Positions 35,106 to 39,026 of a DNA stretch of 64,000 bases are shown here, in pieces. The position numbers and the translations under genes are program-made. Below the pieces are notes generated by a model. That model had not been told where the DNA came from. It was given only the letters and a program-made list of their open reading frames with translations, and did not search any database. Numbering within the stretch: position 1 is the first letter of the stretch; the number at the start of each line of letters is the position of its first letter. The DNA is from Bacillota bacterium (GTDB lineage: Bacteria > Bacillota > Clostridia > Christensenellales > CAG-917), in NCBI GenBank assembly GCA_023665365.1, contig JAMPEA010000001.1, positions 83,914 through 147,913 on the forward strand. Direction: 5' to 3'.

Positions 35106-35654
35106 TCATTGCATTTTAGGAATATCCGCTTCAACGTTCTTTTTATTTTTGTTTTTAAAAGGGACGTAAAAGTATAAAAGATACAATGTTAAAAGCAAAA
35201 ACAAGATACCCAACAAAGAAGCGAAAACTATTCCAAACGCCAATGCGTCCCACGCTTTTACGTCTTTGCCATAACTTACCGCCCAACATACGCCTTTTCC
35301 GCGATATACGTTTCCTTTGTAAATTTCCACCTTTTCGCCAATACGCTGTTTGTCTTTTTCATACTGCTCGTAGTTCTTCAATGAGCCTCGCGCACAATCG
35401 CATTCATAAACGATTCCGTTTTCGTCAACGTAACGACACATTATTGAATAGTTGCTTTTTCTATACGTATGCAAATAAGTAATTTCCGCCTCGACGATAA
35501 TCCCATTGTCGACGGCTTCTTGAATTTTCAAATTTTCGGCATAAGCGTTAAATGAAATTGCCGTACCTATTATAAATACCGCACTAACAACTGTTAATAT
35601 TATAATCGCTTTTATGCCGAGAGGAGAAACTTTTTTGTTTGCCGAGTTTTTCAT
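35106..35654 (-). CDS. Membrane protein with N- and C-terminal TM helices flanking a beta-rich domain (DUF3592-like)
   Basis: 182 aa with topology TM, about 100 aa domain, TM. The pattern GIIVEAEITY...Y..M.RYVDENGIVYE resembles DUF3592. This is a weak call. Confidence 0.45.
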   Translation of the reverse strand: MKNSANKKVSPLGIKAIIILTVVSAVFIIGTAISFNAYAENLKIQEAVDNGIIVEAEITYLHTYRKSNYSIMCRYVDENGIVYECDCARGSLKNYEQYEKDKQRIGEKVEIYKGNVYRGKGVCWAVSYGKDVKAWDALAFGIVFASLLGILFLLLTLYLLYFYVPFKNKNKKNVEADIPKMQ

Positions 35655-35660
35655 AGCATC

Positions 35661-35689
35661 ATTATATCAAAGACCGAAAGAGTATTCAA
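35661..35689 (-). promoter_or_regulatory. Promoter TTGAAT-17-TGaTATAAT, 6 nt from ATG 35654 (leaderless transcript predicted)
   Basis: -35 at 35689..35684 and -10 at 35666..35661. No SD is present. Confidence 0.55.
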
Positions 35690-35858
35690 CCATATAGCTC
35701 GTCAAAAAATAAATAGACGTTATAGCGAGTGCTTGATTTTACGAACGCACGGCATAGCCGTGACAAGGCAGTAAGTCTGACTTGTAATATATACCACTAA
35801 ACAGAGGCTTTTTTGGCGAAGAAGTAGTAACCTAAAACGAATAATAAAAAACAGATTT

Positions 35859-36227
35859 TTATAAATTTGACAATTCATTATTAAAGCCTTGAAACCGCAA
35901 AAGAATATTATGCAGTTCGGCTATTTTGTTTTTTAAAAAGTTCATATTATTTTTATGCTTTACAATATCGTTTTTCTTAAAAAAATGATGGGCTAAATAA
36001 TTACGTTTGTCCAAAATGTATTCTAATTCTTCAATATCTTGCTTATCAAATAAATTTGTTCGTTCAGCATATCCTTTAATTTGTCCCATTGTCATAGATT
36101 GCATATCTTCAAAAAGATTATCAGCATTTGTATTTTGTGCTCTACATACTATTAGGGCTAAATTCCATTCTATGTATTGAGCATTTTCCAATATTTCGCC
36201 TACCAAATTATAAATTGTGTTAATCAT
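35859..36227 (-). CDS. Small all-helical HEPN-like protein (Rx4H motif RNYLAHHFF), HepT/DUF86-like
   Basis: 122 aa from ATG 36227 (AAGGCGG 8 nt upstream). The motif is LEYILDKRNYLAHHFF. The gene is AT-rich and lies 13 nt downstream of the 2-TM gene. Confidence 0.5.
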   Translation of the reverse strand: MINTIYNLVGEILENAQYIEWNLALIVCRAQNTNADNLFEDMQSMTMGQIKGYAERTNLFDKQDIEELEYILDKRNYLAHHFFKKNDIVKHKNNMNFLKNKIAELHNILLRFQGFNNELSNL

Positions 36228-36240
36228 TATAAATACCGCC

Positions 36241-36717
36241 TTAATGTAAAATTTTATTTCCAACACGCAATGTATAATTATTAAGCGTTAACGTACCTAC
36301 TTTCAAATTAACTCTTTCACCATTCAAATCGCATTCTAATGGGCGAGCACCAAAGAAAGAGCCTGTATGCTTATCAACTACCGCATCATCAAGCAACAAA
36401 TATGCACAACTCCACCCCAAATAAACACTGATTTCGTGCCCTTGATATGAATATGAATGGAACTTTACTCCGACAAGGGAACACAGCCAAAACACTATAC
36501 AAAAAATATCCCAAGTACCGAACAAATATAGAGGCACGATATACTTATCTTTTGTATAATACCCATATTCTTCTAAATATTCATAATATATGACTTCTTT
36601 ATCATTTATTGCAAGACTAACAAGAATTATAGTTATTATTGCAGAAATTAGGAACAACACGTTCCATACTATTTTAACAGTATTTTTCCTTTTTTGAAAG
36701 CGTTCTTTTTCCGACAT
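36241..36717 (-). CDS. Two-TM membrane protein with a roughly 70 aa C-terminal soluble domain, unknown family
   Basis: 158 aa from ATG 36717 (GAGGTG 8 nt upstream). TM helices are IVWNVLFLISAIITIILVSLAI and LYLFGTWDIFCIVFWLCSLVGV. The gene is AT-rich. Confidence 0.55.
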   Translation of the reverse strand: MSEKERFQKRKNTVKIVWNVLFLISAIITIILVSLAINDKEVIYYEYLEEYGYYTKDKYIVPLYLFGTWDIFCIVFWLCSLVGVKFHSYSYQGHEISVYLGWSCAYLLLDDAVVDKHTGSFFGARPLECDLNGERVNLKVGTLTLNNYTLRVGNKILH

Positions 36718-36744
36718 AACTAAGCACCTCACATATGTATAGTA

Positions 36745-36777
36745 ATATAAAAAGCGTGTTCCACTGAGAAACACGCT
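36745..36777 (-). terminator. Intrinsic terminator inside the 5' leader of the 2-TM/HEPN cassette
   Basis: Minus strand reads AGCGUGUU-UCUCAGUGG-AACACGCU followed by UUUUUAUAUU. It ends about 20 nt before the SD of the 2-TM gene. Confidence 0.6.
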
Positions 36778-36798
36778 GAAAAACGCACCTCTCAATGT

Positions 36799-36884
36799 TG
36801 CGACACATTTCCCAATTTTAAGGCGAGAGTGTACATTTTTACCTATAACACTCCTTAAAACTGGGGATATTCAAATGTGTCGCA
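36799..36884 (-). promoter_or_regulatory. Long imperfect hairpin of about 86 nt in the leader (candidate cis-regulatory or small RNA)
   Basis: A 12 bp perfect outer stem (tgcgacacattt / aaatgtgtcgca) is followed by cccaattttaagg / ccttaaaactgggg and agtgt / acact inner pairings. A possible promoter TTGTCA-17-TTTAAT lies about 25-50 nt upstream on the minus strand. Confidence 0.5.
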
Positions 36885-36939
36885 TATTTACTATGCCACA
36901 AAACTCAATTAAAATCAATCAATTTGATAGTGACAAATG

Positions 36940-36971
36940 AAAAAATAAAAAGCCACTATTTAGTGGCTTTT
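36940..36971 (-). terminator. Intrinsic terminator of tRNA-Ser
   Basis: Minus strand reads AAAAGCCACUAAAUAGUGGCUUUU followed by UAUUUUUU. It lies 6 nt after the tRNA CCA end. Confidence 0.75.
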
Positions 36972-36977
36972 ACATGA

Positions 36978-37070
36978 TGGCGGAGAAGAAGAGATTCGAA
37001 CTCTTGAACCGCTTGTGACGGTTACGCGATTTCCAGTCGCGCGCCCTCGACCAAACTAGGCGACTTCTCC
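36978..37070 (-). tRNA. tRNA-Ser (anticodon GGA), class II with a long variable arm and encoded CCA
   Basis: Minus strand reads GGAGAAG-TC-GCC-TAGTTTGGTCGA-GGGC-G-CGCGA-CTGGAAA-TCGCG-TAACCGTCACAAGCGGTTC-AAGAG-TTCGAAT-CTCTT-CTTCTCC-G-CCA, which folds as a cloverleaf. Confidence 0.93.
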
Positions 37071-37200
37071 AAAAGATTTGTGGAGAAGGCGTCCAAAGGT
37101 TTCACGACTTCTCCAAAGATTTATTGGGAAGTCGTCCAAACGTCCAGCGACTTCTCCAAAGATTTGTGGGAAGTCGTCCAAAGGTCTTCACGACTTCTCC
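37061..37200. repeat. Tandem 43/44 bp repeat (3 units plus the tRNA 5' end); each unit starts with the first 10 nt of tRNA-Ser
   Basis: cgacttctcc recurs at 37061 (the tRNA itself), 37105, 37148 and 37191. The spacers are about 85-90% identical. Confidence 0.95.
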
Positions 37201-37385
37201 AAAGATTGTTTAAAAAAAATGGGTTGCAGTTGAAGGAAGAATGGACAACAAAACCATTTCCCTCAACTGTACATCATTTTGAGGATTTGAACCCTCTATA
37301 ACCCAACGAAAAGATTATATCTTAACGGCGGCGTTTTGACAAGTAATTACGACGATTATTTTGTCGAATTTTGTAAAATTTCGTA

Positions 37386-39026
37386 TTACTCGCTACGCTT
37401 CAAACTTCTGAAAGTATAACCCTCTTTCTGTCCTATGCGGATTTGCAAATTGAGTTGGTCGATAAACTCCTTATTAGACGAAGTTTTGACAATCATATTG
37501 ATGAGGTTTTCGGTAGCTTCGGCGTTGTCGGTGTTTGAAAGCATCTTTCTTATGCCCCAAGCCGCTTCGAGTTCGCTTGACGTAAGCAGGAGTTCCTCCT
37601 TGCGCGTACTGCTCTTTGCGAGGTCGATTGCAGGGAAGATGCGCTTTTCGGACAGTTTTCTATCAAGGTGGATTTCCATATTGCCTGTGCCCTTGAACTC
37701 CTCGAAGATAACGTCGTCCATACGACTGCCCGTCTCTACGAGCGCGGTTGCGATGATGGTAAGCGACCCGCCCTTATAATTTTTTTCGGGATTGGCTTCG
37801 AGATTTCGCGCCGAACCGAAGAAGCGCTTTGGGCTGTGGAGCGCGCCGGGGTCTATACCGCCCGACAGCGTTCTGCCAGTCGGCGGAATGGTGAGGTTGT
37901 ACGCGCGCGCGAGCCTTGTAAGACTGTCGAGCAAGATAACTACGTCCTTGCCGTTTTCCACAAGCCGCTTTGACCTTTCAAGCAACATTTCCGCGGTTTT
38001 GGTGTGGTGCTCGGGAAGCTCGTCGAAAGTGGAATATACCACCTCGCCTTTTATCGAGCGTTGCATATCCGTGACTTCTTCCGGACGCTCGTCGATGAGC
38101 AAAACTTTGAGCACAACGTCGGGATAGTTTTTTGAAATCGAGCCCGCAATCATTTTGAGGAGCGTAGTTTTACCTGCTTTTGGCGGAGACACTATTATAG
38201 CGCGCTGACCTTTGCCGACGGGAGATACGAGGTCGATACAGCGCATCGCGTACTCGCGCGGTTGATTGGATACTTCGAGGCGCAAGCGCGTTTGCGGATA
38301 CACGGGGGTTAGCGTATCGAAATTAGGACGGGCTTTGGCGTTTTCGACGGTATCGCCGTTTACGGAAATCACGTCGTAAAGCGGCGCAGGTTTGTTTTCG
38401 TCCTGACCTTTTCTGCAAAGCGCGACAACGTAGTCCCCCCTGCGCAAGCCGAACTGCCTTATCTTTGAGGAGCTGACGTATGCGTCGAGCTCGCAACACT
38501 CCCCGCTTTTGACTCTCAAAAAGCCGTAGTTATCGGGGTTGATTTCAAGATAGCCCTCGCGCGTAAACTCTCTGTCCTCTCTGAAAGCCGAGGTCGAACC
38601 GAACTCGTTGAGGTCCTGCACCTCGTCGGTGATGACGGATTTAAACTCAAAGTTGAAATCCGTCCTTTGGCGGGTATCTCTGCGCTCTCTGACGTTGCCG
38701 TCGTAAGGCTTGCGGACATAGGGCTTGCGCGGAGCGCTCGGGTCGAAGCTCGGCTTATACTCCTGCTTCTTTTCGGCGACATTGCCCGTCTTAGGCTCGA
38801 CATTTTTAGGCTCGCTATTTGAGCTGTCAGCACCCGTAAATTTTTTCGGACGTCCGACGCGCGGCGGGGTCGGCGGAGCCATCAGTCCGTTGGAAATTTT
38901 ATAAATCAAATCCATAAGTTCCGCCTTATTCAGCTTAGTAGGCGCAGACACTCCCACCTCTTTCGCAATGTGACGAACGTCGAAAATGCTCATTCTGTCA
39001 AGTTCTTGTTTTGTGTATTTATGCAT
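37386..39026 (-). CDS. rho: Transcription termination factor Rho with a roughly 115 aa N-terminal insertion domain
   Basis: 546 aa. [15 protein letters not shown] (Walker A), [25 protein letters not shown]. Confidence 0.95.

Follow-up and report, generated by a model that had tools for sequence, protein, structure and literature searches.

A small membrane protein gene and a weakly HEPN-like gene, encoded one after the other on the minus strand of the 64,000-nt stretch of DNA analyzed here (the window), were preceded by a long structured leader that ended in an intrinsic terminator just before the first start codon, which raised the question of what the leader does there. The preliminary description of the locus likened its order of promoter, structured RNA, terminator and toxin-like operon to type III toxin-antitoxin loci and also to attenuator or riboswitch leaders. 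On the strength of the sequence comparisons below, we consider it probable that positions 36918-36745 of the minus strand are a complete promoter-leader-terminator module, one member of a family of cis-acting transcription attenuators of Clostridia that would terminate by default.

Layout, fold and promoter of the leader

On the minus strand, the window read in order rho (37386-39026), three 43-nt repeats, a tRNA-Ser(GGA) gene (36978-37070) with its own terminator, the leader, the 158-aa two-transmembrane (2-TM) gene beginning at ATG 36717, and the 122-aa Rx4H gene, with a G+C content of ~30% across ~35600-36950 compared to ~50% in the surrounding DNA. The three tandem 43-nt units upstream of the tRNA gene (37072-37200, in the minus-strand sense) each duplicated the initial bases of that tRNA (GGAGAAGTCG) and were self-folding. 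A repeat search recovered the outer stem of the leader, P1, as a perfect 12-nt inverted repeat (36873-36884 with 36799-36810), and the 211-nt leader folded at -70.1 kcal/mol compared to -45.7 +/- 3.9 kcal/mol for shuffles (z = -6.2; 0 of 200 shuffles equally good). The 86 nt hairpin with a perfect 12 bp outer stem proposed in the preliminary description was therefore present at its proposed place, and a terminator scan recovered the intrinsic terminator that had been placed at 36777..36745. The SD and ATG of the first gene do follow this terminator, the ATG lying 27 nt past the U tract instead of the ~20 nt originally given. In addition, in the minimum-energy fold of the leader, the stretch immediately preceding the terminator was paired with the terminator 5' arm and loop to form an antiterminator. 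Coordinates of all features are given in Table 1.

Upstream of P1, 82 homologous leaders shared a promoter with TTG at -35 to -33, TRTG at -17 to -14 and TAtAaT at -12 to -7, counted from the G that opens P1, which in the window corresponded to TTGATT-17-TGTGgCATAGT. The letters of the promoter first suggested for this locus, TTGTCA-17-TTTAAT, are present in the window, but they are not those of the conserved promoter. Judging from the position of the conserved elements, the RNA should start on the first base of P1. A search of sequencing runs for this DNA recovered three runs of unstated type, likely to be the metagenomes it came from, and no RNA run. The -35 element was likewise kept upstream of 2-TM gene homologues without the hairpin.

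Table 1. Features of the leader module and of the two genes behind it, in positions of the window
Feature	Positions	Strand	Basis
-35 hexamer, TTGATT	36913..36918	-	T/T/G in 79/76/67 of 82 aligned homologues, at a fixed distance from P1
Extended -10: TGTG (36900-36897), g, CATAGT (36895-36890)	36890..36900	-	TRTG and TAtAaT positions kept in 64-81 of 82
Predicted transcription start, G opening P1	~36883	-	7-nt distance to the -10 hexamer
P1 5' arm, UGCGACACAUUU	36873..36884	-	Perfect 12-bp repeat; covariation; independent RNAalifold prediction
Conserved 5' bulge, GAAUAUC (family consensus uAAUAu, 6-7 nt)	36866..36872	-	Family alignments
P2 5' arm	36853..36865	-	94% paired; 12 of 13 pairs compensatory
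Apical region: weak local stem P3, loop UAGGUAAAAAU, CUCUCG	36824..36852	-	Local fold versus long-range duplex energies
5' strand of the long-range helix (3' half of the apical region), AAAAAUGUACACUCUCG	36840-36824	-	
P2 3' arm	36811..36823	-	Pair counts
P1 3' arm, AAAUGUGUCGCA	36799..36810	-	12-bp repeat; pair counts
3' strand of the long-range (pseudoknot) helix, UGAGAGGUGCGUUUUU	36779..36794	-	Permutation test; fixed-column pair counts
Antiterminator hairpin, 36797-36782 with 36777-36762 (terminator 5' arm and loop)	36762..36797	-	Minimum-energy fold; permutation test; slide test
Intrinsic terminator, AGCGTGTT-TCTCAGTGG-AACACGCT and T tract; stem 36777-36770 with 36760-36753	36745..36777	-	Terminator scan
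SD GAGG (36730-36727) and ATG (36717-36715) of gene 1	36715..36730	-	
Gene 1: 158-aa membrane protein, two TM helices and a beta-rich C-terminal domain (bacterial PH / DUF304-like fold)	36241..36717	-	
Gene 2: 122-aa helical protein, RNYLAH (Rx4H) motif, weakly HEPN-like	35859..36227	-	Motif and weak PADLOC HEPN matches

Covariation among homologous leaders, which the preliminary description had proposed to look for, was found in P1, P2 and the terminator. Across 36 sequences, P1 was paired in 97% of cells with compensatory changes in nine of 12 pairs, P2 in 94% (12 of 13 pairs) and the terminator stem in 99% (five of eight pairs), although these counts come from alignments made with a covariance model and biased towards the model's own P1, P2 and terminator structure. 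An independent prediction by RNAalifold, in which 27 of 31 pairs showed compensatory changes, covered the same three helices, and mutual information in the alignment likewise backed them. The local apical stem P3 was paired in only 59-78% of cells and was not predicted by RNAalifold, so we rejected it as a conserved helix and kept it as a transient competitor only. Within P1, the ACACA/UGUGU segment and the closing G-C and C-G pairs were near-invariant and the upper three pairs varied freely, as did one pair lying within the near-invariant part (UA in 20 sequences, GC in 11, AU in four and CG in one), an unusual, sequence-specific pattern of conservation for a helix.

Distribution of the leader and the genes behind it

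We evaluated the frequency of the leader with a covariance model built from four leaders and rebuilt from 25, whose E-values are rough because of a shortened calibration. The genome to which the window belongs encoded seven copies, diverged to 42-61% identity. Matches were found in 46 of 108 genomes of the same family, in 29 of 151 genomes (19 of 95 genera) of the order sample and in 37 of 151 genomes (27 of 108 genera) of the class sample, with up to 12 copies per genome. A pattern scan of IMG/VR identified five viral contigs with leader copies; no match was obtained when the leader was compared by blastn to collections of cultured phages and plasmids. A cmscan of positions 35500-38500 against Rfam 15, with E-values up to 10, returned only the tRNA and chance miRNA-type matches, and our literature search found no account of a motif in front of BspA, LRR or Listeria-Bacteroides-repeat genes. 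The leader appears to be a widespread, uncatalogued RNA of gut Clostridia without an Rfam 15 match. Some genomes carried tandem pairs of complete modules ~200-290 nt apart (L043 1503-1862; L053 1209-1647; G308:C5:90003-90382; G342:C20:8304-8707; G284:C14:12058-12425; G261:C39:30164-30537), and in the L043 pair the second leader copy had its own promoter. A box, ATCAAGCACCCGCCACAGTGCCA, was shared by the upstream regions of several otherwise unrelated leader or 2-TM loci (L019 ~520-560, L022 ~160-200, L023 1-45 and L033 upstream of 1501) and might mark where a mobile or repeat element has its edge.

A same-strand SD and ORF followed 75 of 84 sense-strand copies of the leader, and as the start lay at a median of 23 nt past the U tract, the downstream gene has no room for a promoter of its own. 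Among 66 downstream proteins, Pfam identified 17 BspA-type LRR proteins, nine with the Listeria-Bacteroides repeat and five zinc-ribbon membrane proteins, together with scattered matches that included EcoRI methylase, HNH, GIY-YIG, APH, subtilase and acyltransferase. Overall, the genes behind the leader were unrelated and encoded mainly proteins of the surface or membrane, BspA-type LRR proteins among them. In two genomes of the class sample with 12 copies each, BspA-type LRR proteins made up nine of 20 downstream proteins. The other copies in the window's own genome preceded genes for two LRR proteins, a zinc-ribbon membrane protein and two unknown proteins, and viral copies preceded small membrane proteins. 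Within a recombinase-flanked element, a near-identical leader (129.5 bits) was situated before a 306-aa lipoprotein gene and, next, a HEPN-like gene; the HEPN-like gene thus recurs in second place while the gene in first place differs. This element (L148-L155, with the HEPN homologue P0115), in which leader, lipoprotein gene and HEPN-like gene lie between serine recombinase genes, was widespread, being listed in 148 blocks of the genome collection, and a HicAB pair adjoined it in one variant.

For gene 1, a predicted structure (pLDDT 86) best matched a DUF304, bacterial PH-type cluster (TM 0.70/0.78), whereas no solved structure matched at E <= 0.001 (best E = 0.099) and neither Pfam nor PADLOC gave a match. 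The HEPN likeness of gene 2 is weak, being drawn from its Rx4H motif and weak PADLOC matches; its family comprises over 200 proteins at >=65% identity, is not covered by any Pfam model and is mostly found without the 2-TM gene, and its members are named only "hypothetical protein" where a source names them. The 2-TM family comprised 26 proteins, for which 17 distinct encoding loci were read, and a protein scan of JGI metagenome contigs for this family returned nothing. The preliminary description had let its reading depend on the hairpin recurring in homologous cassettes: it was absent from most readable 2-TM loci and present in five of the 17 (the window, L019, L020/21, L024 and L006/07), the remainder having kept a promoter in front of a short, unstructured leader. 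Since only some 2-TM loci carry it, the leader is an independent module and not part of the cassette. The gene after the 2-TM gene was HEPN-like in the window and L017/18 and PIN7 in L019-21, with none elsewhere. An in-frame upstream TTG extension of gene 1 was considered as a leader peptide and rejected, as the frame was not kept in L019. In different genomes, 2-TM genes very often came next to a tRNA gene (for Ser, Leu or another amino acid), directly behind its terminator and with no integrase nearby (L010, L013-L015, L018, L022, L024, L025 and the window at 36948-37070), which suggests tRNA-proximal insertion of tiny 2-TM cassettes by an unknown route.

Competing helices and a model of attenuation

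We evaluated further pairing within the leader by a permutation test, in which each sequence's segment was paired with its own partner or with every other sequence's partner, making the test independent of the structure in the covariance model. P1, as a positive control, gave -16.4 kcal/mol for native against -8.8 kcal/mol for cross-paired partners (z = -25.5; 0 of 2000 permutations), and |z| was <= 1.7 in four of five unrelated segment pairs; the CUCUCG bulge alone with the linker between P1 and the terminator was weak (z = -2.1). The apical region paired with the pre-terminator segment (native -8.1, cross-paired -5.1 kcal/mol; z = -14; 0 of 2000 permutations), and the linker paired with the terminator 5' arm and loop (native -10.2, cross-paired -5.6 kcal/mol; z = -17; 0 of 2000 permutations). 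Statistics from shuffling are inflated where sequences are related. A weaker signal between the linker and the P1 3' strand (z = -7.7 in the permutation test; columns 77-90 by mutual information) suggests that the linker may be able to pair there as well. No alternative partner was found in these tests for the 5' bulge (uAAUAu), nor any pairing signal between the terminator loop and the apical loop.

The long-range helix between the apical region and the pre-terminator segment comprised 10-16 bp, and its sequence varied between copies, differing in all seven copies of this genome. Examples are GGUAAAAAUGCAAAUUCC with GAGUUUGCGUUUUUCG, GGCAAUUCUUGCC with GGCAAGGUUGC and GCCAAUUAGUAC with GUACUGUUGG; in the window, 16 bp are formed by AAAAAUGUAC(A)CUCUCG (36840-36824) with UGAGAGGUGCGUUUUU (36794-36779). 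In fixed columns it was 73-85% paired, with compensatory pairs. The conserved A-rich loop, the CUCUC bulge, the GAGAG box and the GCGUUUUU box are all explained by this helix. The antiterminator was 83% paired in fixed columns compared to 32-51% when slid, contained G-U pairs on the sense strand and was nearly iso-energetic with the terminator (family means -14.6 versus -15.1 kcal/mol). The long-range duplex beat the local apical stem in 52 of 53 compact copies (-15.1 versus -3.4 kcal/mol) and in the window itself (-18.0 versus -3.8 kcal/mol), in duplex energies that omit loop and topology costs.

These helices draw on the same nucleotides: the 3' strand of the long-range helix (36794-36779) is almost identical to the 5' arm of the antiterminator (36797-36782), and the 3' arm of the antiterminator consists of the terminator 5' arm and the terminator loop. 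Because the strands are shared, the long-range helix would turn the antiterminator off and leave the terminator on, and since its duplex is far more stable than the apical stem that it displaces, termination would be the default state and read-through would need a trigger. P1 (12 bp) and P2 (~13 bp) are equally long, with the conserved bulge between them. As the 5-nt linker cannot reach the apical loop past stacked P1 and P2 (25 bp), the long-range helix would need a sharp bend at the bulge or a partial opening of P1; we conjecture that a fold-back at the conserved bulge would let the linker reach the apical loop.

Building on what was observed (covarying helices, a promoter at a fixed distance, the way in which the genes are arranged and the spread of the family), we propose that transcription would begin at the first base of P1, driven by a strong sigma-A promoter, and that the RNA would fold first into a P1-bulge-P2 rod. 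The linker could then either join the apical stem on its 3' side together with the A-rich apical loop, forming the long-range helix, or join the terminator 5' arm and loop, forming the antiterminator, each excluding the other. If the long-range helix formed, the terminator would be free, transcription would stop at ~36747 and an RNA of ~137 nt would be released; if it were prevented, the antiterminator would form and the polymerase would continue into the 2-TM and HEPN-like genes. The putative trigger of read-through would act by blocking the long-range helix and might be a ligand, a protein or folding kinetics. The leader family thus combined a terminator immediately before an ORF (stem 99% paired, ORF at a median of 23 nt), a mutually exclusive antiterminator that is under selection (z = -17; 83% versus 32-51% paired) and an upstream structure that competes for the antiterminator strand (the long-range helix, z = -14). 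This covarying antiterminator, the long-range helix able to block it and the short distance to the downstream gene support the attenuator or riboswitch-like option raised in the preliminary description.

A bolder and decidedly tentative idea is that the leader family is a new riboswitch or ribo-regulator class that responds to one global signal, either a small molecule or an RNA-binding protein not yet described, and that in small-genome gut Clostridia and in their phages much of the accessory surface proteome is gated in this way. The gated set might then comprise BspA-type LRR proteins, lipoproteins and small membrane proteins. BspA-type LRR relatives act as adhesins in other bacteria. If the attenuation model holds, many uncultured gut Clostridia would control variable surface and membrane proteins by one portable RNA module, present in up to a dozen copies per genome, and the trigger, once identified, would amount to a new signal in the regulation of host-facing proteins, in a section of the microbiome that has received little study. 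An RNA read from +1 in which so long a pseudoknot helix competes with an antiterminator would also suit studies of co-transcriptional strand displacement, and might be reused as an expression switch.

Alternative explanations, related systems and candidate triggers

An RNA antitoxin of the type III kind, or an RNA that partners a toxic 2-TM/HEPN cassette in some other way, would fit the order of promoter, structured RNA, terminator and protein gene, which resembles that of ToxIN and AbiQ/antiQ, and the near-identical leader before another pair ending in a HEPN-like gene could be read in the same way. We nevertheless regard this as extremely improbable: there was no tandem repeat in 36745-36925 by the repeat search, the sole tandem array being the 43-nt units before the tRNA-Ser gene; gene 1 encodes a bPH-like membrane protein and not an endoribonuclease of the ToxN/AbiQ type; the HEPN-bearing relatives L017 and L018 had no leader; and the same leader was found before more than 60 unrelated genes (LRR surface proteins, lipoproteins, methylases and others), without co-inheritance. 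The absence of tandem repeats, the non-ToxN first gene and the dozens of unrelated downstream genes leave the type III reading of the preliminary description unsupported, and for the window a toxin-antitoxin reading of the cassette is removed. It is also very unlikely that the module is a repeat at the DNA level, such as a MITE/REP-like element or a recombination site, instead of an RNA element. Such a repeat would likewise be multi-copy and hairpin-shaped, in low-GC accessory DNA beside tRNA genes and on viral contigs, but the divergence of same-genome copies (42-61% identity) with pairs kept by compensatory changes, an orientation fixed relative to promoter and gene, the sense-strand G-U pairs of the antiterminator and the conserved, non-palindromic long-range pairing all speak for RNA.

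Two further alternatives accept the leader as a transcript and differ in what it does. It could be an independent small RNA gene of ~137 nt that acts in trans, with gene proximity incidental or the terminated leader holding a second job; the module is self-contained from promoter to terminator, termination seems to be the default, and there are tandem pairs whose upstream copy is not followed by a gene before the next copy (L043, L053 and further pairs). We think this unlikely, given that 75 of 84 copies precede a same-strand SD and ORF at a median of 23 nt, that a covarying antiterminator would be purposeless in such an RNA, and that the sequence of the long-range helix differs per copy within a genome, which points to intramolecular pairing and not to a common target. 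A stem-loop at the 5' end of an mRNA is a classic stabilizer, established for Bacillota mRNAs, and the leader might correspondingly be a constitutive element, with a stabilizing 5'-terminal hairpin and a leaky terminator that dampens a strong promoter while nothing is sensed. P1 beginning at the predicted +1 is in keeping with this, as is the lack of an effector, with Hfq, CsrA, cold-shock, BglG-type and extra NusG proteins not detected in the genome. It seems improbable all the same, because three exclusive helices kept by compensatory change and balanced antiterminator and terminator energies exceed what a damper needs, and because conserved nucleotides of bulge and loop are not accounted for by any pairing.

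The attenuation model has partial counterparts among known regulators. The Bacillus subtilis queC preQ1-I riboswitch is an OFF switch in which a pseudoknot captures the antiterminator strand. As in that riboswitch, a 3' segment here joins either a pseudoknot with an upstream loop or an antiterminator, and the pseudoknot would free a terminator just before the SD. Unlike preQ1-I, to which the leader has no sequence or Rfam relation, the helix is 10-16 bp, far longer than the ligand-dependent preQ1 P2, the candidate sensor is a 25-bp bulged rod from +1, and the regulon consists of accessory surface proteins and not of a pathway. The pyr attenuators of B. subtilis (PyrR) share the three-level competition, termination resulting when the antiterminator strand is sequestered by an upstream structure, but the leader has neither a PyrR binding loop consensus nor a link to pyrimidine genes, and its anti-antiterminator is a long-range helix to the apical loop. 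Processive antitermination leaders, such as the LoaP-dependent dfn leader, EAR and conAn2 of pLS20 (PMC8191782), similarly place a conserved hairpin and then a terminator before accessory or mobile genes; in contrast, this genome has one NusG-family gene, the targets of the leader are mostly single genes and not long operons, and the leader carries its own antiterminator. With only that one gene, a LoaP-type NusG paralogue was rejected as the effector.

Class I and II c-di-GMP riboswitches of Clostridioides difficile resemble the family as multi-copy, terminator-based leaders before surface-protein genes in Clostridia. They differ in that the leader had no match to RF01051, either in the Rfam scan or in a further search whose control was silent, and in that no GGDEF domain was found in the 99.5% complete genome by a search whose positive control worked; c-di-GMP therefore cannot be the signal in this genome. 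Searches of the genome for Hfq, CsrA, a BglG-type CAT_RBD and a cold-shock domain detected none, and a search for ANTAR gave no match, its control being equally silent. A c-di-AMP cyclase was present and a ydaO riboswitch was not found, so c-di-AMP is formally open as a candidate trigger, although no other observation points to it. The downstream genes are too diverse to indicate a metabolite, and the viral copies favor either a host-wide factor or a mechanism based purely on RNA. The genome itself (G000; 1.59 Mb) combined a very reduced set of known RNA regulators with at least seven copies of this complex leader.
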